From contig PMLF01000345.1 in NCBI GenBank assembly GCA_003158755.1, forward strand, positions 2,041-31,757: 29,717 bases of DNA, written 5' to 3'. Position 1 is the stretch's first letter. Each line of letters opens with the position of its first letter. Made by a program: the position numbers and the translations under genes. The notes beneath the pieces were generated by a model, which was not told the DNA's origin, made no database searches, and was given only the letters and a program-made list of their open reading frames with translations. Source of the stretch: Elusimicrobiota bacterium. GTDB taxonomy: Bacteria > Elusimicrobiota > Elusimicrobia > FEN-1173. This document shows, one piece after another, positions 96 through 22,379 of this stretch.

Positions 96-929
96 TCATG
101 GGTATAACCTCTTTTGGATTTGTTCCAATCCTTCGACGATCCTTGGGCCTGGACGGAGGATCAGGCTGGGATCTATGTCATCATATATCCGGTGATTCAG
201 GACGGCGGGGACTTGGGACCAACCGAGGCGATTCAGGACGCGGTCCTCACCGCCTGGATAGGTCAAGATCACGCAGTCCGGTCGTCCTTGGAGGACTTCC
301 TCGGCCGTGAAAAAGCTGTAGGGCCTGGGCGCGCCGGAAGCGATGTTGACGCCTCCTGCCAACCGGACCAATTCGTCGACGAAAGAACCATTCCCCGCGG
401 TCATGAGCGGCGTGTGCCAGACCTCGACGAAAACCTTGGGCCGCCGCTCCTCGGGGATGGTCCGAGTGCGGGCGGTCACTTGTTCGACCCGCCGTTTCAT
501 TTGTTCCACCAGGGCCGATGCTTCCTTTTCCCGGCCCGTGAGGCGGCCGATTTCTTCGATGGAATCGTAGAGGCCGATCAGGTCGGCCGGATCGCTCACG
601 ACGACGCGGAGCTTGAGCCGTCGAAGGGCATTCACCGCGGGAGCCTGCTCGTGTCCCGTTCCGAATACGACGTCGGGCTTTAGGAGCAGAATCTTTTCGG
701 CGTCGGGGCGGCTGAACGTACCGACTTTCGCTTTGGTCCGCGCCTGGAGCGGATGGTCGCAATAGAGGCTCACGCCGACGACCTCTTGATCCAGGCCCAG
801 GGCGAACAGGATCTCCGTCGTGGCGGGGGCAAGGGAGACGATACGTAATGCGGCCCGACAGGGGGAAAATAGAAATAGGAAAGCGGCCGCGACTAAGGAC
901 CTATACAATTTACCCACCCTACCGCTCAT
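96..929 (-). CDS. btuF: Cobalamin ABC transporter periplasmic binding protein (BtuF-like); alternative TTG start at 908
   Basis: IVSLAPATTEILFALG, VVGVSLYCDHP and EKILLLKPD motifs of BtuF/helical-backbone metal receptors; downstream of a btuB-like gene and a B12 riboswitch. Confidence 0.85.
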   Translation of the reverse strand: MSGRVGKLYRSLVAAAFLFLFSPCRAALRIVSLAPATTEILFALGLDQEVVGVSLYCDHPLQARTKAKVGTFSRPDAEKILLLKPDVVFGTGHEQAPAVNALRRLKLRVVVSDPADLIGLYDSIEEIGRLTGREKEASALVEQMKRRVEQVTARTRTIPEERRPKVFVEVWHTPLMTAGNGSFVDELVRLAGGVNIASGAPRPYSFFTAEEVLQGRPDCVILTYPGGEDRVLNRLGWSQVPAVLNHRIYDDIDPSLILRPGPRIVEGLEQIQKRLYP

Positions 930-3016: not shown

Positions 3017-3130
3017 CCTTCCCGCGAAGGACTTCGTTTTATATTCCCGGAACCATCGACCGGACTTAGGATCTCGAAGATCCATCACCGTTGCGGGGCA
3101 GCGCCGGATTCTCACCGGCTTCCTTGGTTC
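3017..3130 (-). ncRNA. Cobalamin riboswitch (compact form)
   Basis: Minus strand GAACCA-AGGAAGCCGGTGAGAATCCGGCGCTGCCCCGCAACGGTG...AAGTCCG...TGGTTC contains the conserved B12-element core. The downstream hairpin CCTTCGCGGGAAGG has a GCGGG complementary to the CCCGC of the L5 loop (kissing loop). Confidence 0.92.
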
Positions 3131-10200: not shown

Positions 10201-12463
10201 CGAAGGCGGCGTCGATTTCGACGTGACCAACGACGTCCGCAACGTCCGGGCGGGACCCGTCAGCTTTTTCGGAGGCCTGCGTTTGACCGGGTCGTGGCGC
10301 GCGTCGCCCGCCCGTCTGACGACGATCGTGGCCGCGGAGGACCTGTGGATCAACCAGCAAGTCTTCGACAAGGAACTGGCGCGGGTCACCTGGTCGAAGG
10401 ACCGCCTCGCTTTCGATGCCCCCGCCGGCGCGTCGCAACGGCTGACCGGCGCCGTCGACCTGTCGGACTGGCCCGGTCTCCGGTTTGAGGACCTGGCGTT
10501 GTGGCTCAACGGCGACCGCCTTCTCCGCTTGAACGGAAGCGCGGGCCCGTCCGGACCTTGGAATTTTTCCTTCGAGGGACATGGATTGGAATCGGGGATC
10601 CTCCTTTCCCTGGCCGACCTCGACGTGTCGGGAGACGGGGCCGTCGACGTTTTCCTCACCGGACGGGGGTCGGGCGCCGACCCGACCGTCGAGGCCGAAG
10701 TGGTGGGCGGCGCGGGCACGTTGGGCGGCGTGCCCTACGACGGGTTGGATGCGGCGGTATCCTGGTCCCGGAACCGAGTCCAGCTTCGACGGTTTAAACT
10801 ATTCCATCGAAAGGGTTACGTTCTTTCCGGCACCGGAGAAATGGCCGCCTCCGAAGAACGCGGCGCCCCCCCGCAGATGAGTTTCCTTTTGCGGCTGACC
10901 AACGGGAACCTCGCACTTCTCAAGGAACTATGGCCCGATTGCGTCTCGGCGCGGGGAGCTTTTGAAGGAGAGCTTTCGCTGACGCCCGGGAAAGAGGGCC
11001 CGGTGGTGGACGGATCGTTCTCCCTCGACAACGCCTCCGTTCGCGCCGACAAATACGTCGGGCGGGTCAAGGACCTGACCGTTCGGCTGAGGATGAAGGA
11101 TAACCGCGTGTTCATGGAGGACGTCTCCGGCCGGGAGGATAAGGGCCGCTTCGTTCTGGAGGGGAGCGTGGGGTTGGAGGGAGGCCGCGTGAAGGACTAC
11201 GACCTCCGATTTCGCACCCTGGGCCGGCGAGGAATTCCATTTTCCATGCCACAGCTTTCCGTGCCGCCGGGGCCGCTCCTCAACCAGTTCTCCTTTTTAA
11301 GGAAGACGTTTCAAGGGGAATCGTCGGGGGAACCGCGGGCGGAAATCACGATCAAAGGACCTCACGGATCCCATGTCATCGCGGGGGAAATCATCCTTGA
11401 AGATTCTCGCTTCACGTATCCTCCCCTTCCCGGCGCCTTCGGGTTGGGGAACCGAGGCACGTGGTGGTGGGAGTTTTGGCGGGAAGCCACCTGGGACGTG
11501 ACCATAAAAACCGGGAAGAACTCCTGGTATCGAAACGAGTTCGTGAACGCCCGCGTGGACGGTTGGTTGACCCTCTTGGGTCCCAAAGAAGCGTTGAAGG
11601 TGGACGGCAAGATCCGGACCGACCAGGGGATCATTTCCTACCTCGGACAACCCTTTCAAATCAAACAGGCGGTTTTCGAGGTTGTTACCGACACCAGACC
11701 CGGCGTTTCCGAGGGGACGTCCCTGGCCTACATCTCCGGCGAGGCCGAACGCAGCGCGACGACCATCGACGCGAGCGGAGTCGCCTCGATGGACGTCGTC
11801 ACCATGTCCGTGCCCCGGTCCCGTTTGGGGGAAATCCGTCCGAGATTCGCTTCCCGAAACAACCCCGGGCTCTCCTCCGAACGGGTCTTCCAAAAGCTGT
11901 TGGGATTCTCTTCCCAGGATTCCCACCAGGGGCCGACCACGGAAGAACAGGACCAATTGCTCCGGGCGGGATTGGTGCAGCTCGTGGGCTCCAGCGCCGG
12001 CCCCTTCGCCAACCGGCTTGCCCAGCTTTTCGGAATTGATATGATTGCTGCCGTATACGAGCCAACGGCTCCTCTTGGGGGGAACAGCAACACTCCCCAG
12101 GACGTCGGAGACCTCCGGCGCCTGGCGGTGGAACCGGCCGGAGCGCGGTCCACCATGAACACCTGGTCGGATCTTCTGAGGGGAACCGGCGCCTCCGCGG
12201 GGGTAAAACTCTCGGACCGGATTTTTGGCGTCTATAAGTTCAAGGTGGATCAGTCGCCCACCAATCAAGTTTTCCTCCACGATGAGGTTCAGGTCGTTGG
12301 ACGGGTCGTCGGGAATATTTACTTGAAATTCTCAACGGAACTGGATACCCGGTCGCTCTTGGGCCAGCCTCCCAACCGGCAGATCCTGCTGGAAAGGCAG
12401 TGGCGGTTCGGGCTGCCGTCTCGTAAACCGGAAAACCCAAAGAAAGAAACCCCGGCGCCTTGA
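7259..12463 (+). CDS. tamB: Large TamB/AsmA-like protein (1734 aa)
   Basis: N-terminal TM anchor and AsmA-like start; long Gly-rich repeating beta-strand body; C-terminal TamB-like segment (GWLTLLG..LKVDGKIRTDQGIISYLGQPFQI); directly upstream of bamA. Confidence 0.75.
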   Translation: MRRRLWLLILVLSSAALGVSWVLWGVPRAEKFLYPKVKKILTSRLHRPVRLDGVRLNPLLLSITLENLRVPAGTGPDAPELFACRRWTLFLTPIHRSRQFPWFSLSIGKSTFDVPVLHLDALPPSAGGKLFPGGFPIFPAHRLEWSNGSIHFPAYEKFPSFTLSKCEGTAVVTNADASVDVNGVTPWGPLLSAGRLEVASIFNRSEGLQWKVLVSLPEGRLEEWLPLLPAAVPGRGEGTVGLTLTMQGGSQKSGVDRWGLDADFKKASWTFDRRPWPLSGRLRFASDEVATDGFALGPLKISGKATNPWKSPRMDASLVVDDLPLDDLRMRLPWKPLSALPWRGKASLTASIKGSLERPDLRVSFKAENAGAGPLVLPGLKATLTTKTDRFILDAFLAGGRIHAEAKRTAQNPWPSSDWEGHAESLSLDALAAAGKWGKVGGSLNGNFALRREPVSGEPLAGGVLRLERPAWGDYRLDETVIAYFSWRNDAIRFHNKSDTLDVLVRRTLAGWNLERLSYTRADGMALSGEGSIDGSEKNVSFKASLRQASLRDIPVLLERFPDVEGRWQADVSAEGTLAAPRISLFFEGSGARLRRDAEAHSFRGRARWESASFSLDELRLDDAWKAAAVRSSDGQWLVNVTADGADAALFREISRSSAPVSGRFSASLSASGGGDVPWEGSLRSKATDLRWESRSVSSAVLRADWGKDRIRVGEFSVAFASRSFSYDGEFLRRSPSEWTLSVEGPGIERAEGLARLGDGTLSVRGVKLGDGMVFDGYLDLPRKFIRAGLRGEKVQASALARRTGTDWPRRLGGSLSGEAKMEGPFSSPAFSLAFDWSDARWREVPLMLSFRGGWAGGPLRVDQALFTTPDGGRLECRGAVSGNEEDPLTLSIEASGLPATAAGFLSGGTWGGEAVLEGSRRNPQGRFSMKAAGVRFDDRPPVTARLAGSLRGGTLIVEGAEAFNGESRWTLRPKSFLRFVEGGVDFDVTNDVRNVRAGPVSFFGGLRLTGSWRASPARLTTIVAAEDLWINQQVFDKELARVTWSKDRLAFDAPAGASQRLTGAVDLSDWPGLRFEDLALWLNGDRLLRLNGSAGPSGPWNFSFEGHGLESGILLSLADLDVSGDGAVDVFLTGRGSGADPTVEAEVVGGAGTLGGVPYDGLDAAVSWSRNRVQLRRFKLFHRKGYVLSGTGEMAASEERGAPPQMSFLLRLTNGNLALLKELWPDCVSARGAFEGELSLTPGKEGPVVDGSFSLDNASVRADKYVGRVKDLTVRLRMKDNRVFMEDVSGREDKGRFVLEGSVGLEGGRVKDYDLRFRTLGRRGIPFSMPQLSVPPGPLLNQFSFLRKTFQGESSGEPRAEITIKGPHGSHVIAGEIILEDSRFTYPPLPGAFGLGNRGTWWWEFWREATWDVTIKTGKNSWYRNEFVNARVDGWLTLLGPKEALKVDGKIRTDQGIISYLGQPFQIKQAVFEVVTDTRPGVSEGTSLAYISGEAERSATTIDASGVASMDVVTMSVPRSRLGEIRPRFASRNNPGLSSERVFQKLLGFSSQDSHQGPTTEEQDQLLRAGLVQLVGSSAGPFANRLAQLFGIDMIAAVYEPTAPLGGNSNTPQDVGDLRRLAVEPAGARSTMNTWSDLLRGTGASAGVKLSDRIFGVYKFKVDQSPTNQVFLHDEVQVVGRVVGNIYLKFSTELDTRSLLGQPPNRQILLERQWRFGLPSRKPENPKKETPAP

Positions 12464-12554
12464 TCCGACGACACTTTATTAAGGCGCCCAGCGTCCAACA
12501 AAGCCGACACGTTTGCTTGCAGTTCCATCACGCGTTAAAAGGCCCGGATATTTC

Positions 12555-14990
12555 ATGAGACGTTCTTGCGTTCCCTATCGGTTCCTCCTATTTTTTGCGG
12601 CAAGCGTTTGGCTATTCGCCGGATCCCTCCACGCCAAAACCAAGGAGCCACCGCCGACCGACGCCTTGTTCATCGGGGACGTTACGGTCCAGGGAGACCG
12701 GTTCATCAAGAAAAAGACTGCTTTGGGAAAAGTGAAAGCCCGCAAAAACGACGTCATCATTGATCCCACCTTTCGCGGCGACGTGGACCGGCTGCTGGAA
12801 TCCGGCCTCTTCGACGACGTCCAAGTTTCCTTGGAAGATATGCCGGAAGCCCTGGACGCGCAGGGGCGCCCGAAGAAACGCGTTATTTTCATTCTCCAAG
12901 AACGCCCCGTCATACGCCGCGTCGACTACAAAGGGAACAAGAAATTATCCAAGGGCAAGTTCGACGACGACGTCAGTTCCAAGGCCGGCGACCCCTACGA
13001 TAAGTTCAAGGCCGCCCAGGACATCCAAAAAATCCTCTCCAAATACCGCGACGAGGGATACTCCGACGCCTCCGTCGAAACCTATACGTCTCTCGCCCCG
13101 GAAACCAATAAATTGATCCTGACCTTCTTCATCACGGAAGGACAACGCATTTTGATTCAGAAAGTGGATTTCACGGGCAATAAAATTTACGCCACGAAAA
13201 AATTGCGCCGAATCTTCAAGAAAATCCGCCGCAACAAACCCTTCAAGGAAGACCTCCTGAAGGAAGACATGGAAGCGATGGAAAAGTATTACAAGAACCA
13301 CGGCTACCTGAAGGCTTCCGTGGGAGACCCCAAACGGGACTTTTCCGACGACCGCACCAAGGTCGCCCTGACCTTCGCCGTGGAAGAAGGGCGGCGCTAC
13401 CGGGTGGGAGATTTCACCTTTTCGGGCGCGTCCATTTATTCGGACAAGGAACTGCGCAAAGCGGTCGTCTTCCAGAAGGGTCAGCTCTATACACAGGACA
13501 AGATGGACGAGAGCCGCCAGAACCTCCAGGACCTGTACGCCGATAAGGGATACCTCCGCGCGGAGATCACCCCGACGGAAAAAGTCCTCGAACTGCCGAA
13601 CAACCAAGCGAGCGTGGACTACCATTTCACCATCGTGGAAAGCTCGGTCGTCTACGTCGACCGCATCTACATCGACGGCAACACCTACACCAAGGACAAG
13701 GTCATCCGCCGCGAGGTGCTCCTTAAAGAGGGGGACGTCTTCTCCTCCGGGAAGCTGCGGCGCTCGGTGGAAAAAATCTACAACCTCGGCTTCCTGGACG
13801 ACGTCCAGCCGGACGTCCAGCAGCCCCGCTCCCCCGTCAAGGCGGACGTGGTCTTCAGCGTCACGGAAGGCAAACCCGGCGTGCTGTCGGCCGGCGCCGG
13901 CTATTCCAGCGTCGACAAGCTGGTCGGCAACCTTTCCGTGCAGCACAACAACCTGTTCGGCCTCGGCCAAAAAGCCACCGCCTCATGGGAATTCGGCAAA
14001 CGCCGGCAGAGCTTCGACGTGGGTTGGGTGGACCCGTGGTTTATGGACAAACCCATGAGTTTCGGCGTCGACGTTTTCAACGTCGACCGCAAGCTCATCG
14101 CCCGAGCTCCCAACTACGACCCCATCACGCTGGTGGAGAACACCGGCTACTTCGTCGAAAACCAAACCGCCTATTCCTATACCCGACGGGGTTTTACCTT
14201 AAGCCTTTCACCGCGATTGACGGACCGCCTTTCCCTTTACCACGCCTACACTTTTGAGCGGCTGATCACCCACGCCATCGATCCCTTCTTCGCCAACCAC
14301 CCCGATCCGCTTTACCAAATCGTCGGTCGGGACGACATCAAATCCTCCATCACGAACGGCGTTGCTTACGATACGCGGGACTATTACCTGGACGCTTCCA
14401 AGGGTCAACGGAGCTCCGCCAACGTTGAAGTGGCCGGCGGACCCTTCCGTCTGGGGGAACACGTAAAAAATATGACCTTCTACAAACCGGATTTTGCCAG
14501 CGCCTTTTATTTCCCGACCTTCTGGAAGTTGGTGTTCTCGGTTTCGGGACGGATGAGCTTCATTGAGGAATTTGACGGCTATACCCTGCCGTCCCAATCC
14601 GCCGAACGTTTCCTGCTGGGTGGCGTGGACACCGTCCGGGGTTACCGCCTGGGCAACGTCGGAACGCAATACGCCCGTTCCATGTTGATCTTCAACGCCG
14701 AATATAAATTTCCCATCGTCCAGGAAAAAAGGAAAACCATCCTTCAAGGAGCGTTCTTCGCCGACGCCGGCGGCGCCTGGGACCGGGGGACCAGCAGCGA
14801 TCCCCTCCGTCACATGAACTGGCAGATCGGGAACGAACCGCAACAAATGAGGGCCTCCTGGGGTTTCGGAATCCGATTCAAGACTCCCGTCTTCCCCATT
14901 CGTTTGGACTACGCGTTCCCGTTGAGCAAAGCCCGGCCCGGGGGAGAGTCCTTTGAGCGCTTCAGCTTCAACATCGGGAACATCTTCTGA
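12555..14990 (+). CDS. bamA: Outer membrane protein assembly factor BamA
   Basis: Signal peptide from ATG 12555; five POTRA repeats; barrel start GVLSAGAGYS; VRGY loop-6 motif; ends FSFNIGNIF. Confidence 0.95.
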   Translation: MRRSCVPYRFLLFFAASVWLFAGSLHAKTKEPPPTDALFIGDVTVQGDRFIKKKTALGKVKARKNDVIIDPTFRGDVDRLLESGLFDDVQVSLEDMPEALDAQGRPKKRVIFILQERPVIRRVDYKGNKKLSKGKFDDDVSSKAGDPYDKFKAAQDIQKILSKYRDEGYSDASVETYTSLAPETNKLILTFFITEGQRILIQKVDFTGNKIYATKKLRRIFKKIRRNKPFKEDLLKEDMEAMEKYYKNHGYLKASVGDPKRDFSDDRTKVALTFAVEEGRRYRVGDFTFSGASIYSDKELRKAVVFQKGQLYTQDKMDESRQNLQDLYADKGYLRAEITPTEKVLELPNNQASVDYHFTIVESSVVYVDRIYIDGNTYTKDKVIRREVLLKEGDVFSSGKLRRSVEKIYNLGFLDDVQPDVQQPRSPVKADVVFSVTEGKPGVLSAGAGYSSVDKLVGNLSVQHNNLFGLGQKATASWEFGKRRQSFDVGWVDPWFMDKPMSFGVDVFNVDRKLIARAPNYDPITLVENTGYFVENQTAYSYTRRGFTLSLSPRLTDRLSLYHAYTFERLITHAIDPFFANHPDPLYQIVGRDDIKSSITNGVAYDTRDYYLDASKGQRSSANVEVAGGPFRLGEHVKNMTFYKPDFASAFYFPTFWKLVFSVSGRMSFIEEFDGYTLPSQSAERFLLGGVDTVRGYRLGNVGTQYARSMLIFNAEYKFPIVQEKRKTILQGAFFADAGGAWDRGTSSDPLRHMNWQIGNEPQQMRASWGFGIRFKTPVFPIRLDYAFPLSKARPGGESFERFSFNIGNIF

Positions 14991-15015
14991 TGGGAACCGT
15001 TTTCGTCGTAAATCA

Positions 15016-15044
15016 TTGACAACTCGCCGCGATTCCGTTAACTT
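15016..15044 (+). promoter_or_regulatory. Sigma70-type promoter of the four-gene export operon
   Basis: TTGACA (15016-15021), 17 nt, TAACTT (15039-15044); ATG follows after 9 nt. Confidence 0.7.
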
Positions 15045-15053
15045 GTCGGGTAA

Positions 15054-15677
15054 ATGGATACGGTGGAGCTACTTCTAAAGGACACCTTCTTTTGGGCGGC
15101 GGCGGGAGTTTTCCTGCTCAGCTTATCCGTCTTCCTCTGGAGCCTGACGAGATTGCGAACGAAGTCCTCCTCCACGGGAGGAATGCCGTCTCTTTCATCC
15201 CGCGATTTTCCGTCACCGATGAATCCTTCTTCCGTCCCCCGCGACAAAAAGAGCCTTTGGGATTTCCCGCCTCCCGAGCTTCCTCCCGTTTTGCCGCCGG
15301 ACATGGAAGCAACGATGAAGCTCAAAGGGGCCGCCGGAAAACCCCCGGCGCCCACTCCGCCCGACTCTCCCCTTCTTCCTCAACGAGGAGATCCGACGTT
15401 GGTGCTTAGCGTCATGGAAGACAAATTCGCTGAACTGGCGAAACGCATCGCGGCTATTGAGCACCCCAAGAAGGATCAAGCTCCTTCCTATTTGGAACCC
15501 CTACTCAAGCGCGTGCAGGACATGGAATCGGAGTTGAAAAACCTGAAGTTCGCGTTCACACAACTGTCCTCGGCTCAAAACGCCATCAACTTAAACGACC
15601 TCACCGCCAAGATCCAGGGAATGCAGCAGATGATGGAACACCTGACCGGCGGGACGGACGTGTCCAAACCCTCATGA
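15054..15677 (+). CDS. Hypothetical membrane-anchored protein (TM, Pro/Ser-rich linker, coiled coil)
   Basis: TM FFWAAAGVFLLSLSVFLWSL followed by RLRTK; Pro-rich middle; heptad-like C-terminus; ATGA overlap with the next gene. Confidence 0.7.
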   Translation: MDTVELLLKDTFFWAAAGVFLLSLSVFLWSLTRLRTKSSSTGGMPSLSSRDFPSPMNPSSVPRDKKSLWDFPPPELPPVLPPDMEATMKLKGAAGKPPAPTPPDSPLLPQRGDPTLVLSVMEDKFAELAKRIAAIEHPKKDQAPSYLEPLLKRVQDMESELKNLKFAFTQLSSAQNAINLNDLTAKIQGMQQMMEHLTGGTDVSKPS

Positions 15678-16189
15678 CCATGGCCCTCGACAAACGATCC
15701 GCCTTAACGATATGCCTTGGAAGCTTCTTCCTCATGCTGGGATCGGGTATCCTTCTATGGTCCCGATGGGACAAGCTGTCCCACGGGGCTCCGGCGGTGA
15801 AGAAAGTTTCTTTGCCTGAAACCTTCGATCCGGCCTTCGGCGTCGGTACGGGGTGGCCCGCCGCTGCGTCGCCCGCCGCCCCCGCGACGCCGGGCAGGCC
15901 TCCGGTCCGATCCCCGGCCCCCAGCCCTGATCCCGGCGCAACGCGCAACATACGATTCACCTTCCGCGATTCACGACCGGCCAAAGTGGAACTCGTCGGG
16001 AATTTCAATAATTGGACGCCGGAAGCCATGACAAAAGGGGACAACTTCGTCTGGGACGTTTCCGTTCCCCTGAAACCGGGCGAATACACCTACAATTTTC
16101 TGGTGGACGGCAAACCGTCGAGGGATCCCAACAACCCCCGCACGGCCCCCGAGGGGAGGTCCCTCCTGGTGGTAAAAAATTTACCATGA
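15674..16189 (+). CDS. Membrane-anchored CBM48/AMPK-beta-like glycogen-binding domain protein
   Basis: N-terminal TM; Pro/Ala linker; C-terminal AKVELVGNFNNW...WDVSVPLKPGEYTYNFLVDGK...DPNNP, typical of AMPK1_CBM/CBM48. Confidence 0.85.
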   Translation: MTMALDKRSALTICLGSFFLMLGSGILLWSRWDKLSHGAPAVKKVSLPETFDPAFGVGTGWPAAASPAAPATPGRPPVRSPAPSPDPGATRNIRFTFRDSRPAKVELVGNFNNWTPEAMTKGDNFVWDVSVPLKPGEYTYNFLVDGKPSRDPNNPRTAPEGRSLLVVKNLP

Positions 16190-17454
16190 GGCGTTTTCTA
16201 CTCCTTTTCCTCGCCGTTTCCCTCCCGTTTTCATCCTTCCCCGTCGCCGCGAAGTCTCCGACCAAATCAAAACCCTCCGCCCTTCAGCGGGATTTGGCCT
16301 ACTACCGCCACCTGGCCAAAGCGAGGAAGATGAGTCCGAACGACCGCCTTTACATTTTGTACCGCATGAAGGGGAAATACGCCGAAACGAAGTCGGACCT
16401 GGCGCCGCTCCTCGGAGAAATTGATCGATGGGAAACCGCGAAGCGCACGGGGAAAGACCCGGGAGCGCCGAAAAAATCGCACCCGTCCAAGGTCGCCGCA
16501 AAACATCCGAGTGCGTCTCCGGTCCAAGCTTCGACGACGACACCCGCCAAAGCGGCGGAACCCGCGGTCCCCTCCGCGTCCATGACCGAGGTTTCCGCCT
16601 CCACCGTGACGGTCCAGCCGGTAAACATGGACGCTCTCCTTCAGCCCGGCGATTTTTTGACCATCAAGGTTTTCCCGACCAAGGACCTGAACCGGGAAAC
16701 CGTCGTTCAACCCGACGGCACGATCGTGTTCCCGCTCCTCGGGACCCTCCCGGTCCAAGGGATCACCCAAACCTCCCTGGAAAAAACCCTCGTTAAAAAA
16801 CTCAGGCGCTACGTCACGGCGCCGCAAGTCCGCGTCACGGTTCGTCGTTCTTCGGACAACATCGTTCTGGTCACGGGACGGGTGGTGAATCCCGGGGCCG
16901 TGGCTTATCGAACGGGAATGAAAACGCTTTCCGCGGTCTCCTCCGCCGGAGGTTTCCAAGAAGACGCCGATCGGTCCGGCGTCTTGGTCCGCCGATACCG
17001 GGGGAAGGACCAAACCACCTTCACCGTCGATCTCCGGGCGGTCCAAATGTATTGCGACTCGACGAAGGATTCCCTTCTTCAGCCGGGCGACGTCGTGGAC
17101 GTTCCCCGGGAAGGGAACAACGTCTCGATCCATGGAATGGTGAACCATCCCGGGAACTATTCCTTCCAGAAAGGGATCACGCTTCTGGAACTGCTCTCCG
17201 ACGCCGGAGGGTTCGCCGTCGGCGCCAAGACGGAAACGGTCTTCCTTTACCGCCAAGGAGGCTCCGGGCGAAACTCGGAAACGGTCAACGTCGACCGACT
17301 GTTAAACAAACATCCCGAAAGCGACCCCGTCCTGAAAGGCGGCGACATCGTCATGGTTCCTCAGAAAACGTTTTACGCCGGGACGGCGGCCATGACCCCT
17401 TGGATGTACCTCGCCACCCTGGTGATCGCCGTCGTCGTGGCGACGAAAAACTGA
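16186..17454 (+). CDS. Wza/OPX-like polysaccharide export protein with an N-terminal extension
   Basis: LQPGDFLTIKVF, PDGTIVFPLLG (Poly_export domain); SLBB repeats (AVSSAGGF, LLSDAGGF, LQPGDVVDVP, LKGGDIVMVP); hydrophobic C-terminal helix; ATGA overlap sets the start at 16186. Confidence 0.88.
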   Translation: MRRFLLLFLAVSLPFSSFPVAAKSPTKSKPSALQRDLAYYRHLAKARKMSPNDRLYILYRMKGKYAETKSDLAPLLGEIDRWETAKRTGKDPGAPKKSHPSKVAAKHPSASPVQASTTTPAKAAEPAVPSASMTEVSASTVTVQPVNMDALLQPGDFLTIKVFPTKDLNRETVVQPDGTIVFPLLGTLPVQGITQTSLEKTLVKKLRRYVTAPQVRVTVRRSSDNIVLVTGRVVNPGAVAYRTGMKTLSAVSSAGGFQEDADRSGVLVRRYRGKDQTTFTVDLRAVQMYCDSTKDSLLQPGDVVDVPREGNNVSIHGMVNHPGNYSFQKGITLLELLSDAGGFAVGAKTETVFLYRQGGSGRNSETVNVDRLLNKHPESDPVLKGGDIVMVPQKTFYAGTAAMTPWMYLATLVIAVVVATKN

Positions 17455-17455
17455 C

Positions 17456-18862
17456 TTGGACCCCGAGTCCCTTCCTGTTTCCCGCCGACGGTTCCTCCAC
17501 CGGCGGGCGTTTTTTGTCGGAGCGGGATTGTTGGCCCCGGCGGCCGCCTGGATCGTTACTCTTCTCCAAACACCCGTCTACCGAGCCTCGGCGGTCCTGA
17601 GGATCGATCCCAACGACCCGCTGAAAAGCGTCGGGGCCCTTCTGGACACCGAAGTGAAAAGGGCCGGTAGCCCGGACGTTGCCCGTCGGGCGGCGGCGCT
17701 CCTCGGCTGGGTGGCGCCCGCGATGCCGGAAGAAACCGTCCGAAACTTAGCGAACGCCATCCAATCGCAATCCGTCGTCGAGCGCGTGGGAGAATCCAAC
17801 CGCCTCCGGATTTCGGTATTGGACGCCAAGGCGGAAAGGGCCGCGGCCCTCGCCAACGCCCTGATGTACGCTTACATTCAACAAGCCATCGACAAGAACA
17901 ACTCGGTCGGGATCTTTGCCCAAAGCTCTTTCGTGGACCACCCCGCCCTGGCGCCGAAGCGGCCGCTGCGCCCCGATTTGTTCTTTAACCTTTCTCTGGG
18001 GGCGGGAGGTCTGTTCCTGGGGCTGGTATCGGCCTTCCTGACCGGAGAACCGGACGCTCCGCCGGTCACCGCCGAAGACAAGGAACAATTCTTCGGACTT
18101 CCCGTCCTATCCGTCATTCCCCGACTGTCCATCGCAAGCGTTCGATCCTTTTCCCTTTTCCGGCGAGGGCCGGGGATCGAAGAGAGTCGCCGACGAACGA
18201 TCCTCTTCCATCCGTCACCGTCCTCTTTCGCCGATTCCTACGAACCCCTTCGCGCGAACCTCTCCATCACCGCGCGACCCGGAGGCCGTCCGGCGCCGGC
18301 GGTGGCGTTCACCTCCGCCGCTTCCGGAGAGGGGAAAACGCTCACGGCAGTCAACGTCGCCCTGGCCGCGGCCCAATCGGGACTCCGCGTCCTTTTCATC
18401 GACGCCGATTTTCGCCGCCCCTTCGCCCACAAGCTCCTCGGGATGCCCCGGGAACCGGGACTTGTGGACGCCGTTCTGGGGAATAAAAATTGGTTGGTTT
18501 TCGTGCGGGGGATGCCCGACTTCCTTTTCGGGGAGTTGAAGGTGGCTCCCTGGCTCCAGTCCTCCGGCATCGAGAACTTTCACCTGCTCGCCAGCGGCCG
18601 GCCTCCCTTAAAACCCGAAGACGTCCTTCGGGAGCCTTCCTTCGATCGACTCCTGAAGGAGGCTCGCTCCCGGTTTGATTTGGTCGTCATCGACGGCGCG
18701 CCCGTGGGCCCTTTCGCCGACGCCTTGATCGTCGGCCAAAAAGCCGACGGGGTTGTCCTGGTGCGCCGATCCGGCGTCACGGACCGGGATGAGTTGAAGC
18801 GCGCCGCGCAACAACTCCTCGACGCGAAGTCCAGGGTTTTGGGGGTAGTGATAAACGGCTAG
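17456..18862 (+). CDS. Compact Wzc-like polysaccharide co-polymerase/BY-kinase fusion lacking the C-terminal Tyr cluster
   Basis: TTG start 1 nt after the wza stop; two TMs with TPVYRASA and PKRPLRP Wzz-like motifs; Walker A SAASGEGKT, A' FIDADFRRP, B VVIDGAP; ends VLGVVING. Confidence 0.85.
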   Translation: MDPESLPVSRRRFLHRRAFFVGAGLLAPAAAWIVTLLQTPVYRASAVLRIDPNDPLKSVGALLDTEVKRAGSPDVARRAAALLGWVAPAMPEETVRNLANAIQSQSVVERVGESNRLRISVLDAKAERAAALANALMYAYIQQAIDKNNSVGIFAQSSFVDHPALAPKRPLRPDLFFNLSLGAGGLFLGLVSAFLTGEPDAPPVTAEDKEQFFGLPVLSVIPRLSIASVRSFSLFRRGPGIEESRRRTILFHPSPSSFADSYEPLRANLSITARPGGRPAPAVAFTSAASGEGKTLTAVNVALAAAQSGLRVLFIDADFRRPFAHKLLGMPREPGLVDAVLGNKNWLVFVRGMPDFLFGELKVAPWLQSSGIENFHLLASGRPPLKPEDVLREPSFDRLLKEARSRFDLVVIDGAPVGPFADALIVGQKADGVVLVRRSGVTDRDELKRAAQQLLDAKSRVLGVVING

Positions 18863-18873
18863 GCGATATATTT

Positions 18874-21120
18874 TTACGAAGCGGACCCCGCAACCGAATC
18901 CGACAGATAGTTCACGGGAACGGGATGAGGCTTCGCGGCCGCATCAGGGGACAATAGTTCATAAACCAAAACGCGGTTGACGGGACGCCCGCCGTACATT
19001 TCATCCCGGTGAAACAGCTCCTCGACATAACGGCTCCAGTACTGCCGCAGAACGGCCGCCCCCGCCTCATCGAATTTCAACATCCCATACCCTTTCAATC
19101 GTTCGGACTCCCCGAGGTTCAGGACCATATTGGTAATCCCTTCCCGACGGAGCCGGTCGGCCAGGGCATCCCCGTCCCGCGATTCGCGGGCCCAGGCGAT
19201 CAGAGGCGACTCGTTGAATACGGAGGAGGCAATGTGATCGCGTCGAAGGTAAAACCCCCGGGATTCACCCAGGATAAGGACTCGCGCCCCGGGCGAGAGC
19301 TCTTTGTTGATTTCATCATAGGCCGAGAAAGACGGCGAAGGATAGGTGGTGTGGAATCGGCCGAGGTATTCTTCCTTGGTCTCCAAACCTATGACGGGCC
19401 GCCAGCCTTCCATTTGATCCGTCAACAGAAAGGATTGCGAGACGTCTCCCAAGCACATGACCAGCACCGACAATCGGAAGAAGCTCTTCAAGACCGACGG
19501 CCATGGGACTTTTAATATCCCATAGGCCGCCGCAATCGCGAAAAAGGGAAGGGAAGGCATCAGGTACCTGGCAAGCGTCGTCGTGCACGCCCAAGACAAG
19601 GCAAAAAGAACCGACGCGCCCGCGGCCACCCGCAAGGGGACGGGGTACTTCTTGAAAAACACCAAAAGCGGAAGGAACACCAAATAGACCGGAGTGAACA
19701 CGGCGGCGTTGGCCTTTAATCCCATGGTAACGTCCCACGGCAGGAGAAGGAAACCCGCCAAACCCTTCACGTCGTATTGGGAGGCTTCCGTGAAAAGACC
19801 GTGAAGCCGGACGGGATCGTCAGCCCGCGTTCCTGGAAATAGTCCCGAAAGAAACGGGAACACGGGATTCCCCTTGAAAAGGACGTTTTTGATCAGCCAG
19901 GGAGAAAGGACGACGGTCCCCGCCGCGACCAAGGTCCCTCCAGCCAAGAAAACCTGCCGCCACGTCAGGGTTTTTCGCGCGCCCGCGTACACAAGCATGG
20001 CCATCAAAGACACGGGGACGAATACGGCGGTGTACTTGCTTCCCATCGCAAACCCGCAAAAAACACCGGAAAGGACGATCCACGACCAGGGAAATCCCCT
20101 TTCGGGGCCGACGGCGTCCTTCCACCAAAAGGCGAAGGAATAGAAAGCCAGCATGGAAAATAAAGTGATCCCTAGGTCCGTGCCGCACGCCGATGAAATA
20201 TATAAGACGTGGAAAAGAGAATAAAATATCATCGCGGCCCAACGTCCAACGCGGGGGGTCAACGCTCGCCGGCAAAAAGAAAAAATCGAGGCGCAACAGA
20301 GAAGACCCAGCCCGTAACATTGCAGTTTGGACACCATCTCGTCTTTAACGAGGAGCCCCGCCGTGTAGAAATAGGTGACCGTCATGGGCATGTGGGCATA
20401 GACGTTCCAAGGGGCTTCCACCAGGCGATGGGCCATGACGTTCAACCAGGGGACGCCCAGGTGGTAGGCGAGACTGTCGAAAAAGACGAGCGGCGTGAAG
20501 GCCCCCAACAAACCGTGGAGCGCCTGCAAAAGAAAAAGGGCGAAAGCGAACTTATCGAGGAGCGGCCATCGGAGGAATGGATTCGAAGGCTTCGAATACG
20601 GCGGAGCCGACCGCCAATCCATCACGATCCTTCCGGCTTGCCAAAGGCCCAGACCGATGATCAGGGGACGAACGACCCACGCGTAAAGACCGCCGACGGC
20701 GGCGAGCAGAAACATCAGGTAGGACAGGAGGCCGCAACCGAGGGCGGTTTCCAAAACGAATCGTTCTCTCCGGTTTCCGTCGGGAAACGTCGCGGACATC
20801 AAGGCGAACCGCCCCAGAGACCCGGCCGACAGGAAAAGGACTCCCGCCCATAGGAAGGTCGTCAGACGGTCCCACAAGAGAACCGCGGTCAATGAAGGCA
20901 ACGCGCCCAGGACACCGCCCAGAACCCGTGAAATGGCCTCCACGGGAAATGGGAAAACTCCATAATAGTTGAAGAGAACGAAACCGCTCCAGAGTATCGC
21001 GGCCGTCGCCGCCAGAGGCCAAGGCAATCGATAGGTGGGGAGGTCTTCCGGCTGTTTTTCGCTTGGCTGATTCGTCCCGCCGGCGCGGGAACGCGGACCG
21101 CGCTTATTACGGGACGCCAT
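18874..21120 (-). CDS. Polytopic membrane protein, GT-C (ArnT/PMT, GT39/GT83-like) glycosyltransferase, about 748 aa
   Basis: Many TM helices; loop motif FDSLAYHLGVP; GFAMGSKYTA; WLIKN..KGNPVFPF; soluble C-terminal domain. ATG at 21120 overlaps the upstream TAA (TAATG). Confidence 0.65.
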   Translation of the reverse strand: MASRNKRGPRSRAGGTNQPSEKQPEDLPTYRLPWPLAATAAILWSGFVLFNYYGVFPFPVEAISRVLGGVLGALPSLTAVLLWDRLTTFLWAGVLFLSAGSLGRFALMSATFPDGNRRERFVLETALGCGLLSYLMFLLAAVGGLYAWVVRPLIIGLGLWQAGRIVMDWRSAPPYSKPSNPFLRWPLLDKFAFALFLLQALHGLLGAFTPLVFFDSLAYHLGVPWLNVMAHRLVEAPWNVYAHMPMTVTYFYTAGLLVKDEMVSKLQCYGLGLLCCASIFSFCRRALTPRVGRWAAMIFYSLFHVLYISSACGTDLGITLFSMLAFYSFAFWWKDAVGPERGFPWSWIVLSGVFCGFAMGSKYTAVFVPVSLMAMLVYAGARKTLTWRQVFLAGGTLVAAGTVVLSPWLIKNVLFKGNPVFPFLSGLFPGTRADDPVRLHGLFTEASQYDVKGLAGFLLLPWDVTMGLKANAAVFTPVYLVFLPLLVFFKKYPVPLRVAAGASVLFALSWACTTTLARYLMPSLPFFAIAAAYGILKVPWPSVLKSFFRLSVLVMCLGDVSQSFLLTDQMEGWRPVIGLETKEEYLGRFHTTYPSPSFSAYDEINKELSPGARVLILGESRGFYLRRDHIASSVFNESPLIAWARESRDGDALADRLRREGITNMVLNLGESERLKGYGMLKFDEAGAAVLRQYWSRYVEELFHRDEMYGGRPVNRVLVYELLSPDAAAKPHPVPVNYLSDSVAGSAS

Positions 21121-22379
21121 TAGGCGGGATCGAAAACAGCTCCGGCGAAAGACACGATGCCGCCGGCAGGGTCGGGTTTCTGATCGTAACCGAGGAGCAT
21201 GCCGCTCAACGGGCCACCGGCGACAGCGCGGGTCCAGCGAAGGGCGGTGTAGAGGGCCGAGAGGCCGCAGACTTTCCGCCACGCGTTCTCGCCGACGCCC
21301 GCCAGGAAAAAACCATCCGCATCTCCCGCCAAGGCCTTGTCCAGGCTCTCCCGGTCGAGCGTCTCCACCTTCTTTTTCAACGCGTCGTCTACGTCCATCT
21401 CATCTCCGAAACGACGTCCCACGTGGGCCAGATCGACGCCGGCCAAGATCATGACGCGGCGTCCTTTTCGGCGCTCCTCCGCCAAAAGGTCCCCGATATC
21501 CGAAAGAGCTTTCTCGACGGTGGGCACGACGGAGGGCGGACGGTCCTCGCAGTAAGGCTCGAAGGAAGAACAAAGGATCGGCACCCAGGGGGGGGTCTTG
21601 TCCCGCCACAAATATTTGAGCCACAGGGCCTGGAACTCCAAGGAATGTTCCTTGGCGTGGACCCACTCCTCCTCGCGCGTATCGTACCAAAGGCGGGCGG
21701 CAATCCGATCGTGGAGATCCGCGTCCACCATCATGGGCCCGAAGGGGGTTTCGTAGGCTTTGCGGGTGGTCACCCAAGGCGAGCGGGGAGAATGGTGGGC
21801 GACGCCCAAGGCCACCACCACGTCCGGCGGGCGGCGCCGGGCCAGTTCGCCGTAGGCCGCCGCATAGATTTGGCCGCCCCGGGCGAAATCGATGTGAGGA
21901 GCCGCCAAGCCCAGAGGCGCTTCGCGGTCGCCGGGAAGAGGGGGACCTCCCGCTGCGCCGAAGAACCGTCCAAGGAGAGCGCCCATGCCCAAAGCGTCCG
22001 GCGGAAGTCCGCGGGATTCGGCGTGAAAAGGGCGGAGAGGCGATTCGCCGAAAACCTTCAATTGACGGCGTCTCTCCTCCCGGGAGGAGGGAGTATCCAA
22101 CAATCCGTGAAGGTCCAGGTCGTCGGCCAACGATTGGACGTCGGACTCCTTGGCGTCCATCCCTTCGGTCGAGAGGACCAAAGCCACTTCGGCTGCCGTT
22201 CGTTTTCCGTCGAAAATGGAGGCGACGAGGGCGGCGGCCATGGGGACCGCCGCCGCAGCCTTCTCGTCGAGACCCAGGGCGTCCGACATAACCACCAATT
22301 TTTCTCCGTCCCGCTCCACGGGCTGAAGCTCGAGGTCCCGACGAAGGGGGGGAATCGGGGTGCCGGTAAGGAGAGCCAT
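21120..22379 (-). CDS. MEMO1 family (AmmeMemoRadiSam protein B-like) with an extra N-terminal domain
   Basis: APHID, LGVAHH, YETPFG, EHSLEFQ, GVDLAHVG and KVCG match MEMO1 metal-site motifs; about 100 extra N-terminal residues; start placed at ATG 22379. Confidence 0.85.
   Translation of the reverse strand: MALLTGTPIPPLRRDLELQPVERDGEKLVVMSDALGLDEKAAAAVPMAAALVASIFDGKRTAAEVALVLSTEGMDAKESDVQSLADDLDLHGLLDTPSSREERRRQLKVFGESPLRPFHAESRGLPPDALGMGALLGRFFGAAGGPPLPGDREAPLGLAAPHIDFARGGQIYAAAYGELARRRPPDVVVALGVAHHSPRSPWVTTRKAYETPFGPMMVDADLHDRIAARLWYDTREEEWVHAKEHSLEFQALWLKYLWRDKTPPWVPILCSSFEPYCEDRPPSVVPTVEKALSDIGDLLAEERRKGRRVMILAGVDLAHVGRRFGDEMDVDDALKKKVETLDRESLDKALAGDADGFFLAGVGENAWRKVCGLSALYTALRWTRAVAGGPLSGMLLGYDQKPDPAGGIVSFAGAVFDPA

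Follow-up and report, generated by a model that had tools for sequence, protein, structure and literature searches.

A four-gene block of an Elusimicrobiota bacterium that probably joins an uncharacterised pair of small membrane proteins to the export half of a Wzy-type locus

The window analysed here is a stretch of 29,717 nucleotides from an Elusimicrobiota bacterium (contig PMLF01000345.1). It contains four co-directional genes, g1 to g4 (Table 1), which are joined by ATGA at positions 15674-15677 (g1/g2) and 16186-16189 (g2/g3) and by a gap of 1 nt (g3/g4), exactly as described in the original prediction. Domain searches for Wzy, Wzx, GT, PGT and phosphatases found none within positions 15054-18862, which agrees with the earlier statement that wzy, wzx, GT and wzb genes are missing from the block. 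The gene order, including the PCP/PMT_2 junction, was the same in an independent ENA assembly, and the reading frames of g3 and g4 were intact and identical across four independently assembled contigs. The claim that the block has one promoter was not borne out, as a consensus scan of positions 14800-19100 yielded no σ70-like site. The sequence TTGACA at positions 15016-15021 is a perfect -35 element, and the candidate -10 element, TAACTT, has 3 of 6 matches and ends 9 nt before the ATG. Since the gap of 63 nt between the upstream Omp85 gene and g1 contains no terminator-like site, g1-g4 may be transcribed by read-through from the tamB-like and omp85 genes.

Table 1. Features of the four-gene block, in positions of the window
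Feature	Positions	Strand	Basis
Promoter-like hexamers, as originally proposed (TTGACA, 17 nt, TAACTT)	15016..15044	+	Consensus scan: 0 sites accepted
g1, 207 aa, bitopic membrane protein	15054..15677	+	ORF
g2, 171 aa, bitopic membrane protein, CBM48/AMPK-beta-GBD-like	15674..16189	+	ORF, Pfam, predicted structure
g3, 422 aa, OPX (Wza-like)	16186..17454	+	ORF, Pfam, NCBIfam, alignment to Wza 2J58
N-terminal helical module of the g3 OPX, residues ~25-100	16258..16485	+	Comparison of OPX proteins
g4, 468 aa, TTG start, reduced PCP/BY-kinase-like	17456..18862	+	ORF, Pfam, NCBIfam

The g1 protein starts with an acidic N-terminus, followed by a TM helix (residues ~13-31), a Pro-rich disordered linker and three C-terminal helices (114-136, 144-170 and 174-199); its AF2 model has a pLDDT of 67. 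Pfam and NCBIfam profile searches assigned it to no family, and D10 and E136 are invariant among its orthologs. Over 18 orthologs, the mean K+R count was 0.67 on the N side versus 3.3 on the C side. An N-out/C-in orientation with cytoplasmic helices fits the positive-inside rule, and this is consistent with the earlier description of g1 as a cytoplasmic coil.

The g2 protein combines a short basic N-terminus, a TM helix (~10-28) and a Pro/Ala/Ser-rich linker with a C-terminal CBM48/AMPK-beta-GBD-like beta-sandwich (~88-168). It scored above the Pfam cut-offs for AMPK1_CBM (35.3 bits, cut-off 26.8) and CBM_48 (23.2 bits, cut-off 22.4), and its predicted structure, with a pLDDT of 84 overall and above 90 in the sandwich domain, superimposes on the AMPK beta CBM with a TM by target of 0.84 and an rmsd of ~1.9 at 31-33% identity. 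Glycogen binding by AMPK beta1 needs three residues, W100, K126 and W133; the K126Q substitution abolishes binding, and W133L disrupts it in part (PMC6274970). In g2, W114 is the equivalent of W100, and N141 and P148 replace K126 and W133, respectively. The W100 equivalent, which lies in an FNNW motif, is invariant across the g2 family, and the other two positions are variable there. All three residues are kept in cytoplasmic GGDEF-CBM48 fusions, including the source genome's own, and in ParA-CBM48 fusions. Because the g2 family lacks the full set of W/K(R)/W positions and two small insertions of these cytoplasmic fusions, g2 represents a subfamily apart from them. The presumed capture of an alpha-glucan by the CBM48 is thus weakened, the W100 equivalent alone remaining. 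The further view that this domain is periplasmic is plausible, and the periplasm is the most likely location of the sandwich, but the charge bias is ambiguous (1.95 against 2.3). The N-terminus, with two basic residues in 5-8 positions before the hydrophobic helix, and the linker, which is poor in K/R and rich in Pro/Ala/Ser/Thr, suggest a signal anchor followed by a linker that is exported.

The g3 product is an OPX protein with an SPI-type signal peptide without lipobox Cys, an N-terminal extension, a Poly_export domain (146-219), two SLBB domains and a hydrophobic C-terminal helix, and it aligns with residues 100-338 of Wza (2J58), into the C-terminal membrane helix. Among OPX proteins, its N-terminal helical module was found only in the g2-adjacent ones of G001, G002, G004, G007, G009, G015 and G036 (families f1, f2 and f6), and one secretin of the source genome (G000:C138) has two copies of the module in its N-terminal region. 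The g4 protein was recognised by the Pfam models CbiA/AAA_31 and by the NCBIfam model TIGR01007 for the BY-kinase domain (119.8 bits versus a cut-off of 108). Two TM helices enclose a periplasmic loop of only ~140 aa; the Walker A, A' and B motifs are intact, and the C-terminal Tyr cluster is missing. Its orthologs of 626-648 aa are longer by ~165 coiled-coil residues and have a tail rich in Y. Compared with them, the PCP of the source genome has lost its Tyr tail as well as ~165 aa of the coiled coil in the periplasm.

The order g1-g2-OPX-PCP was found in 9 other genomes or contigs (G004, G007, G009, G015, Ca. Obscuribacterium magneticum, the metagenome contigs L060, L061 and L072, and the P0012-carrying contig), and g1-g2-OPX without PCP in G001, G036 and L062. 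Co-occurrence of g1 and g2 with the OPX/PCP pair is therefore seen in relatives as well and is more than chance. Several of these blocks continue with synthesis genes: g1-g2-OPX-PCP is followed by Wzy_C-GT4-CDP-OH_P_transf-methyltransferase in L061, by x-GT4-MT-CDP-OH_P_transf in Ca. Obscuribacterium (L034) and by GT4 in the contigs with P0011 and P0012, and GT2 and GT4 genes lie behind the PCP gene in G015. In the source genome (G000), an 85% complete MAG in 354 contigs, so that location elsewhere is judged by contigs, the originally suggested search for distant wzy and wzx genes found 8 Wzy_C, 3 Wzx-type and 3 PGT loci; there are 2 further OPX genes. A GT4 and a 174-aa protein encoded on contig C128 of this genome are 64% and 63% identical to the products of two genes behind g2 in L074/L075, and the same GT4 is 56% identical to the post-PCP GT4 of L060. 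Contig C128 ends 121 nt upstream of this GT4 gene, at a short repeat. From these gene orders, we conclude that the lack of synthesis genes next to the block is a rearrangement specific to the source genome.

These observations bear on the original prediction that the four genes form a self-contained, stripped-down conduit that operates without dedicated Wzy-type genes, with a CBM48 in the periplasm to capture or guide an alpha-glucan and a coil in the cytoplasm to position the complex. Such a conduit would be in line with the tight coupling of the four genes, the lack of any synthesis gene inside or beside them in the source genome, the CBM48/AMPK-beta fold of g2 and the presence of a GlgA-type glycogen synthase in this genome. 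However, as far as gene order can tell, the idea is largely refuted by the relatives, where the PCP gene leads straight into Wzy_C, GT4, CDP-OH_P_transf and methyltransferase genes as the ordinary partner of a Wzy cluster. The GT4 ortholog on C128, the lack in g2 of two glycogen-binding residues that the cytoplasmic CBM48 fusions keep, and the occurrence of g1-g2 in genomes where no OPX was found also speak against it, and we regard it as highly improbable.

The g1-g2 pair extends well beyond the OPX/PCP loci. A small TM-CBM gene like g2 was present in 41 of 41 genomes (G000 and all 40 relatives searched), and g1 lies directly upstream of it in 24 of the 40 relatives. In 21 of these 41 genomes, the search for Poly_export found no match, and among the 21 are G005 (99% complete, 3 contigs), G006 (100%), G012 (98%, 4 contigs) and G037 (98%, 1 contig). 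Downstream, g1-g2 is followed by TPR-ExbB-ExbD-ExbD-TonB, a TonB-dependent receptor, LPG_synthase_TM or directly GT4. We conclude that g1-g2 is a pair of small membrane proteins with a wide distribution in Elusimicrobia that has so far gone undescribed. The view that it is an OPX/PCP accessory as such is not supported, since it also occurs in genomes without a detected Poly_export and ahead of other gene sets.

Because g1-g2 persists without OPX in many genomes, its adjacency to OPX could be historical only. The pair would then have an envelope function of its own and no role in export, and the OPX/PCP genes would be a decaying or reduced remnant of a broken-up EPS locus. This would account for the finding that g1-g2 is far commoner than OPX and has varying downstream partners. 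Also, the OPX gene of G001 sits, like an insertion, between g2 and a TPR-ExbBD cluster that in other genera lies directly behind g2. Moreover, the OPX/PCP module of the clade looks unstable from its gene sequences, because the OPX gene is frameshifted in L072 and degenerate with an internal stop in G001, Walker A of the PCP is lost in L060, and L074/L075 have no OPX-PCP between g2 and GT4; the truncated, Tyr-less PCP of the source genome adds to this picture. On the other hand, both frames are intact here and identical in the four contigs, and the three Walker motifs of g4 and the overlapping stop and start codons have been retained. All four genes have diverged from L072 to a similar degree (identities of 62% for g1, 54-58% for g2, 53% for the OPX core and 55% for the cytoplasmic part of the PCP). 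In addition, the OPX N-terminal module follows adjacency to g2 over three families, and in a fourth (f7) g1-g2 is directly preceded by the gene for a stand-alone BY-kinase-like protein whose Walker A is dead. The branching of the OPX tree did not resolve whether g2-OPX adjacency had one or several origins. Altogether, we consider a merely historical neighbourhood rather unlikely, though by no means negligible.

The gene neighbourhoods bring up yet another possibility, namely that the g2 sandwich and the g1 helices tether or sense storage glucan at the cytoplasmic side of the membrane and feed into functions of the envelope that c-di-GMP controls, the ATPase domain of the PCP among them. Immediately upstream of g1, an HD-GYP gene is present in G001, G019, G029 and G036; in L062 it lies three genes upstream, and a PilZ gene lies two genes upstream of g1 in genus g9. 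GGDEF-CBM48 fusions are encoded by the same genomes as g1-g2, and fusions of CBM48 with AAA_31 (ParA/BcsQ-like), the P-loop family of the PCP, are found in other phyla. The ambiguous charge bias of g2 would allow such a topology. Nevertheless, g2 differs from the cytoplasmic CBM48 subfamily in residues and insertions, its N-terminus and K/R-poor linker resemble a signal anchor with an exported linker, and its gene neighbours mostly encode periplasmic or outer-membrane proteins (OPX, the TonB system, a TonB-dependent receptor and an OmpA/Pal-like lipoprotein). A cytoplasmic glycogen/c-di-GMP module is thus improbable.

The explanation that we favour, with moderate confidence, is that the operon consists of two joined units, the uncharacterised g1-g2 pair and the export half of a Wzy-type locus, which would be linked through a membrane hook. 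In the first unit, two small bitopic inner-membrane proteins would act together, g1 reaching into the cytoplasm with its Pro-rich linker and three-helix domain, and g2 holding a divergent CBM48-type sandwich, most likely periplasmic, at the end of a long flexible linker. The second unit would comprise a class-1-like OPX outer-membrane channel and an inner-membrane co-polymerase/ATPase, the PCP, from an exopolysaccharide locus of the Wzx/Wzy type. This unit and its synthesis genes were presumably placed directly behind g1-g2 in the lineage of the source genome; later, and in the source genome only, the synthesis genes were parted from it, and the PCP lost its tyrosine tail and the greater part of its periplasmic arm. 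The gene structures, the folds, the patterns of conservation, the rearrangement and the reduction of the PCP follow directly from the data. We infer that g1 and g2 form a membrane complex, in which the sandwich may serve as a tethered periplasmic hook for the N-terminal module of the OPX subfamily or for an envelope glycan other than glycogen, and may help to keep the outer-membrane channel above the inner-membrane machinery. Synthesis of the polymer would fall to Wzy, Wzx, PGT and GT genes at other sites of the genome. Co-folding of g1 with g2 gave a median of 0.45 over three runs versus 0.00 for the best control, which the tool grades as weak support; the runs agreed in at least 100% of contacts, with a partner pLDDT of at least 90, and the output gave no interface. 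It should be kept in mind that 58 of 80 solved complexes passed the co-fold mark, as did 2 of 110 mismatched pairs, and that only 7 of the 80 solved complexes but both passing mismatches did so with values of 0.60 or less. The restriction of the OPX module and the dead BY-kinase-like neighbour in f7 support a functional link of g1-g2 with OPX/PCP, to which the co-fold adds weak support.

Among known systems, Wza-Wzc of E. coli (group 1 capsule and colanic acid; a class-1 OPX with a PCP-2a BY-kinase) resembles g3-g4 in the Poly_export and two SLBB domains aligned to 2J58 100-338, in the alignment of g4 with the Wzc/Etk kinase domains, Walker A, A' and B included, and in the Wzy_C and GT genes of the orthologous loci. 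In contrast to Wza, g3 has no lipobox, gave no Pfam Wza_C match and carries a ~145-aa N-terminal extension with the secretin-shared helical module; in g4, neither the Tyr cluster nor the Wzz/GNVR coiled-coil portion of the periplasmic domain is present, and the source locus has neither a nearby Wzb phosphatase gene nor an adjacent synthesis gene. The outer loop of g4 (~140 aa) is of the size seen in CapA of the Gram-positive PCP-2b systems (S. aureus CapA/CapB, a short-outer-loop adaptor with a separate kinase), and among solved structures g4 is matched best by CapA1-CapB chimeras, over the juxtamembrane activator segment and the kinase. Unlike CapA/CapB, however, g4 unites adaptor and ATPase in one chain, belongs to a diderm, has an OPX partner and lacks the Tyr cluster used by CapB. 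With XrtA/PEP-CTERM EPS loci there seems to be a resemblance only, as both the best NCBIfam model for g3 (export protein TIGR03027, 147 bits, cut-off 180) and one of the best for g4 (tyrosine autokinase TIGR03018, 97.6 bits, cut-off 230.65) score under the curated cut-offs. The AMPK beta CBM/CBM48 shares with g2 the fold, the sequence identity and Pfam matches given above and the invariant W100 equivalent, whereas conserved K126 and W133 equivalents are absent from g2, and the membrane anchor and long linker are features of g2. Lastly, GspC and PilP, inner-membrane proteins that dock to secretins, and SPOR-type proteins such as FtsN have a layout in which a short N-terminus in the cytoplasm is followed by a single TM helix, a linker rich in Pro and a small binding domain in the periplasm. 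Although g2, with its CBM48 domain, matches neither the HR domains of GspC and PilP nor SPOR in sequence or fold and would be an analogue rather than a member of these families, its architecture resembles theirs, and the g2-adjacent OPX has its N-terminal module in common with a secretin.

The four genes g1 to g4 are located on contig C60 of the source genome G000 (2.65 Mb, 354 contigs, 85% complete) and are as tightly coupled as predicted, the junctions read from the sequence being ATGA, ATGA and a 1-nt gap. Domain searches also bore out that the block contains no Wzy, Wzx, PGT, GT or phosphatase gene. The original prediction placed the four genes under one promoter, which was not supported by a sigma-70 promoter scan, as no promoter-like site was found; the TTGACA at position 15016 is a perfect match, but the accompanying -10 candidate matches at only 3 of 6 positions. 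The 63 nt between the Omp85 gene and g1 lack a terminator-like site, and a terminator scan detected no such site on the + strand after the Omp85 gene or after g4. An independent ENA assembly has the identical gene order, including the junction between g4 and the PMT_2 gene. Rfam searches over the window gave no match in or near the operon, and a repeat search of the window gave short chance-like matches only. The block is a real operon, in which a reduced version of an ordinary export pair (g3, a Wza-like outer-membrane polysaccharide export protein or OPX, and g4, a Wzc-like co-polymerase or PCP) stands behind an uncharacterised, widely conserved membrane pair (g1 and g2).

Two sets of neighbours were rejected as conserved partners. 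The adjacency of the TamB-like and Omp85 genes to g1 is not kept in the relatives. PMT_2 genes are found near g1-g2 in family f7 and adjoining the PCP gene in the window, but the window PMT_2 glycosyltransferase has no detectable kinship to the f7 copies, nor to the gene after the PCP gene in locus L072. The PMT_2 gene of the window is followed by Memo and DegT genes. At the far end of the window, an AdoCbl (B12) riboswitch, a TonB-dependent receptor gene and a periplasmic binding protein gene probably constitute a B12 uptake operon.

Coordinates of the genes and other features discussed in the text. L0xx, loci; G and C numbers, genomes and their contigs.
Feature	Location	Strand	Description
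Periplasmic binding protein gene	window 96-929	-	same putative operon as receptor gene
TonB-dependent receptor gene	window 1060-2925	-	
AdoCbl (B12) riboswitch	window 3050-3130	-	57.9 bits; upstream of receptor gene
TamB-like gene	window 7259-12463	+	1734 aa; upstream of g1
Omp85 gene	window 12513-14990	+	825-aa Omp85/POTRA protein; directly upstream of g1
g1	window 15054-15677	+	207 aa ORF
g2	window 15674-16189	+	171 aa ORF
g3	window 16186-17454	+	422 aa ORF; OPX
N-terminal helical module of g3	window 16258-16485		residues 25-100
g4	window 17456-18862	+	468 aa ORF; TTG start; PCP
PMT_2 gene	window 18874-21282	convergent with g4	downstream flank
f7 BY-kinase-like gene	L031:7121-7939	+	stand-alone
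f7 BY-kinase-like gene	L084:6973-7800	-	stand-alone
AAA_22 ATPase and 471-aa protein genes	G000:C304 (L063:234-2452)		before DegT
Secretin gene	G000:C138:10119-12650 (L068)		843 aa
Repeat at end of C128	G000:C128:4285-4318		~30 nt
DUF4032-GGDEF-CBM48 fusion	G000:C267, L097:4723-5859	-	cytoplasmic
DUF4032-GGDEF-CBM48 fusion	L098:4918-6036	-	G012 counterpart
AAA_31-CBM48 fusion	L054:7903-9240		
AAA_31-CBM48 fusion	L050:4961-6037		
AAA_31-CBM48 fusion	L053:8065-9213		
Second CBM48-bearing protein of G000	G000:C125 (L069:1647-3914)	-	755-aa ORF as called

As anticipated, the order g1-g2-OPX-PCP recurs in relatives, whose records are titled Elusimicrobia or Elusimicrobiota (G004, G007, G009, G015, Ca. 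Obscuribacterium magneticum, the loci L060, L061 and L072, and the contig of protein P0012), but there the block stands before synthesis genes and is not self-contained. It continues with Wzy_C, GT4, CDP-OH_P_transf and methyltransferase genes in L061, with GT4, methyltransferase and CDP-OH_P_transf genes in Ca. Obscuribacterium, with GT2 and GT4 in G015, and with GT4 on the contigs of P0011 and P0012. Clusters of the same type (OPX-PCP-Wzy or OPX-PCP-GT4) are also present apart from g1-g2 in G024 and G030. In the window, no Wzy, Wzx, initiating PGT or GT gene adjoins the OPX/PCP pair, and in G000 such genes are on other contigs. Elsewhere in this genome there are 8 Wzy_C genes, 3 Wzx-type genes, two more OPX loci with PGT genes of their own, and an orphan contig, C210, that carries Wzy, Wzx and GT4 genes.

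A GT4 gene of G000 and the next gene, of 174 aa, are found beside mutL on the 4.3-kb contig C128. The same arrangement follows the PCP gene on the P0011 contig (GT4-168aa-mutL), and the two C128 products are 64% (GT4) and 63% (174 aa) identical to those of the two genes right after g2 in L074/L075. A short repeat marks the break in C128, 121 nt upstream of GT4, and no overlap was found between this end and C60 after the PCP gene; the repeat is common to contigs C193, C251 and C339, and a mobile or repeated element may end there, at the point of rearrangement. Because the blocks of the relatives run into synthesis genes and the GT4 ortholog of G000 sits on C128, the missing synthesis genes at the window are the result of a local rearrangement and not a design feature. 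The case for a new export system fails: the window pair represents the exporting half of a locus of the Wzy type. The self-contained alpha-glucan conduit of the original prediction, which took up the lack of synthesis genes within the block and the CBM48 domain of g2, is one to which we give very little credence.

The genes g1 and g2 are a unit of their own, kept across several Elusimicrobia families. A g2-like small gene encoding a TM helix and a CBM was present in all 41 genomes searched, and in 24 of the 40 relatives, from families f1, f2, f4, f6 and f7, g1 is the gene immediately upstream; in other families no g1 was detected with the g1 profile, the sensitivity of which may be limiting. 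For 21 of the 41 genomes, several of them near-complete, the search for Poly_export gave no match. Downstream of g2 there are genes for a 1000-aa TPR protein and then ExbB-ExbD-ExbD-TonB in several f1 genera, a TonB-dependent receptor in f4, LPG_synthase_TM in f6, and directly GT4 in L074/L075. In G001, g2 and the TPR-ExbBD cluster are separated by a degenerate OPX gene and a 481-aa gene, and in the Elusimicrobiaceae the g2-like gene is preceded by a gene for an OmpA-family lipoprotein. g1-g2 is a two-gene membrane module without known family at the head of envelope operons across several families, which makes it a candidate for a core component of the envelope in a little-known phylum.

Another TPR-ExbB-ExbD-TonB cluster was observed on contig C304 of G000, where it follows a DegT gene preceded by genes for an AAA_22 ATPase (268 aa), with an N-terminus that by eye only was judged ExeA/GspA-like, and a 471-aa protein without Pfam family. 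Members of the latter family follow GT4 in L062; the G001 481-aa gene after OPX is also without Pfam family.

The g1 protein matched no Pfam or NCBIfam family. In its predicted model (pLDDT 67), an acidic N-terminus is followed by one TM helix, a disordered Pro-rich linker and three C-terminal helices. Among 18 orthologs, the mean number of K and R residues flanking the TM helix was 3.3 on the C side and 0.67 on the N side, and because of this bias an N-out/C-in topology is likely. The only look-alikes in the ESM Atlas were 'hypothetical protein' clusters of Elusimicrobiota, at a score of 0.81 that is under the level that counts. The public gene call for g1 covers its last 87 codons only, and a spurious 88-aa gene has been called on the opposite strand; the g1 orthologs align across the full 207 aa, TM helix included.

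For g2, the predicted CBM48/AMPK-beta fold and family profile were borne out. Both AMPK1_CBM and CBM_48 of Pfam match above their cut-offs, and in the predicted model two basic residues precede a TM helix, from which a Pro/Ala/Ser-rich linker leads to a beta-sandwich (domain pLDDT >90) that matches the AMPK beta CBM structures 1Z0M/1Z0N with a Foldseek probability of 1.00 and a TM by target of 0.84, superposing at an rmsd of ~1.9 A with 31-33% identity. The charge bias at the TM flanks is ambiguous for topology. Source records label g2 homologs only as 'hypothetical' or 'glycogen-binding domain-containing protein'. Glycogen binding by AMPK beta1 is abolished by W100G and by K126Q and partly disrupted by W133L (PMC6274970). 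In a profile alignment with 1Z0N, W100 corresponds to W114 of g2, which is invariant in the g2 family, while the positions of K126 and W133 are taken by N141 and P148, both variable across the family, so that only the W100 equivalent is kept.

The comparison with other CBM48 proteins bears on the possibility that g2 belongs to a cytoplasmic glycogen or c-di-GMP module. HD-GYP or PilZ genes are often found upstream of g1-g2, and G000 encodes a cytoplasmic DUF4032-GGDEF-AMPK1_CBM/CBM48 fusion without TM segment, which has a counterpart in G012 (372-378 aa) and is a candidate glycogen-sensing diguanylate cyclase; CBM matches in 374-460-aa frames of most f1 and f2 genomes suggest that it is widespread in these families. 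AAA_31/BcsQ-like ParA-type ATPases with a C-terminal CBM48 and an intact glycogen site were found in Planctomycetota and uncultured bacteria, and this architecture recurs in an ESM Atlas cluster of 89 members, most of them from Omnitrophota. Both kinds of fusion retain the W, K/R and W positions and two small insertions. Since two of the three site residues and both insertions kept in cytoplasmic CBM48 fusions are missing from g2, the g2 family is a divergent CBM48 subfamily for which canonical glycogen binding is unlikely, and we regard a cytoplasmic glycogen or c-di-GMP module as quite improbable. For the same reason, we rejected the AAA_31-CBM48 fusions as Rosetta-stone support for binding of g2 to the PCP ATPase. 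A second CBM48-bearing protein of G000, on contig C125, ends in a Glucodextran_C (SLH-like) module and has a lipoprotein-type signal motif; as this weak LPAM_1 match is at residues 113-129, the true start may be further in.

The g3 protein contains Poly_export (PF02563; 73.4 bits, cut-off 28) followed by two SLBB domains (SLBB_2 86.3 bits and SLBB 77.5 bits, two stretches each). Class-1 OPX proteins have been defined by a C-terminal Wza_C helix that spans the outer membrane, for which homology detected with HHpred has to cover 10 or more of the 34 residues 326-359 in Wza (2J58), and a lipoprotein signal (SPII) is typical of them but not obligatory, being present in ~78% (PMC9603273). The phmmer alignment of g3 with 2J58 covers residues 100-338 of Wza and so enters this segment by 13 residues, a count to be read against a criterion set on HHpred. 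Pfam Wza_C gave no match in g3, the C-terminus of which is a hydrophobic helix. No lipobox was found, there being no Cys in the first 30 residues, and the signal peptide ends at an Ala-Ala-Lys type site.

Within its first ~145 residues, g3 has a helical module of ~55 aa, which shares 35% identity with two repeats near the N-terminus of a G000 secretin. The module is present in the g2-adjacent OPX of G001, G002, G004, G007, G009, G015 and G036 (f1, f2 and f6) and was otherwise seen only in this secretin and in two weak matches; the non-adjacent OPX genes of the genomes searched gave no match to it. Given the kinship of the module-bearing genomes, these represent at most two or three independent cases.

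The g4 protein has a BY-kinase-type P-loop domain (TIGR01007, 119.8 bits, cut-off 108.05) with Walker A (GEGKT), the Walker A' segment and the hydrophobic-D Walker B motif kept, and its best solved-structure matches are CapA1/CapB chimeras, Etk and Wzc. No Wzz or GNVR domain was matched with Pfam, and ~165 residues of periplasmic coiled coil, the Wzz/GNVR part, are lacking compared to seven aligned orthologs. Moreover, g4 stops right after the kinase core without a C-terminal Tyr cluster, whereas the orthologs have Y-rich tails. Because its closest relatives in a large protein collection (51-56% identity) are proteins of 626-628 aa with Wzz/GNVR, the short form is recent.

Altogether, these observations show the operon to be a composite of the g1-g2 unit and the export half of a Wzy-type locus, along with the folds, the rearrangement and the PCP reduction, and we consider the composite account as a whole, its mechanism included, reasonably probable. 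Whether the two halves are functionally linked, or are historical neighbours of which the export pair is decaying, has to be judged from several observations. Three of them favour a link, the first being that the N-terminal module of OPX tracks adjacency to g2. Second, in f7 (G030 and G037), a stand-alone BY-kinase-like protein of 272-275 aa is encoded directly upstream of g1-g2; its Walker A lysine is lost and it has no Tyr tail, and it appears to be a conserved pseudo-kinase. Third, co-folding of g1 with g2 gave a score of 0.45 (median of three runs; best control 0.00), with contact agreement of at least 100% and partner pLDDT of at least 90. Of 80 solved complexes, 58 reached the mark, as did 2 of 110 mismatched pairs, but at scores of 0.60 or less only 7 of those 80 complexes and both mismatches did so, and the predicted pairing receives weak support. 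Against a link, g1-g2 is present without OPX in many genomes, and the OPX/PCP pair is unstable in the clade, being frameshifted in L072, degenerate in G001, deprived of Walker A in L060 and absent from L074/L075. The OPX tree (15 sequences, IQ-TREE) also lacks resolution: with 2 of 12 inner branches supported and long branches meeting, it permits no statement on a single clade of g2-adjacent OPX. On the other hand, the g3 and g4 frames are intact and identical in four assemblies, and all four genes are similarly diverged from L072 (53-62% identity), which argues for continued function. Historical neighbourship with a decaying export pair is a doubtful explanation, albeit one to be taken seriously.

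By the inferred mechanism, g1 and g2 would form an inner-membrane complex, and the tethered g2 sandwich would touch the N-terminal module of OPX or a non-glycogen envelope glycan, thereby helping to link the channel in the outer membrane with the inner membrane. Such coupling could matter more in G000, because its PCP has lost the periplasmic arm, and the polymer would be supplied by the Wzy, Wzx, PGT and GT genes elsewhere in the genome. In its most specific form, g1-g2 would be an undescribed Elusimicrobia inner-membrane adaptor pair, in which the CBM48-derived sandwich, formerly a glycogen binder, is now a tethered periplasmic docking domain that recognises the helical module of the OPX subfamily and the secretin and replaces the lost PCP arm in G000; on the cytoplasmic side, the g1 helices would engage the BY-kinase-like ATPase. 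As a single claim, this docking model is unlikely.

The N-terminal module that an OPX subfamily shares with a secretin hints that two different outer-membrane channels may dock by a common principle. Likewise, PCPs without periplasmic coil, without Tyr tail, with a dead Walker A or standing alone are a natural series of reduced forms that could reveal the dispensable parts of Wzc-type proteins. What is new is the uncharacterised g1-g2 accessory pair ahead of a reduced OPX/PCP pair. Its g2 sandwich has the fold of the AMPK beta CBM but lacks equivalents of K126 and W133 of AMPK beta1. With Wza-like class-1 OPX proteins, g3 has Poly_export and SLBB in common but not the SPII lipoprotein signal, and with PCP-2a/BY-kinases of the Wzc type, g4 shares the P-loop kinase domain but neither the periplasmic coil nor the Tyr cluster. 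As the export half of a Wzy-type locus, the g3-g4 pair is of a familiar sort, and split EPS clusters like this one have already been described in Myxococcus (PMC9603273).
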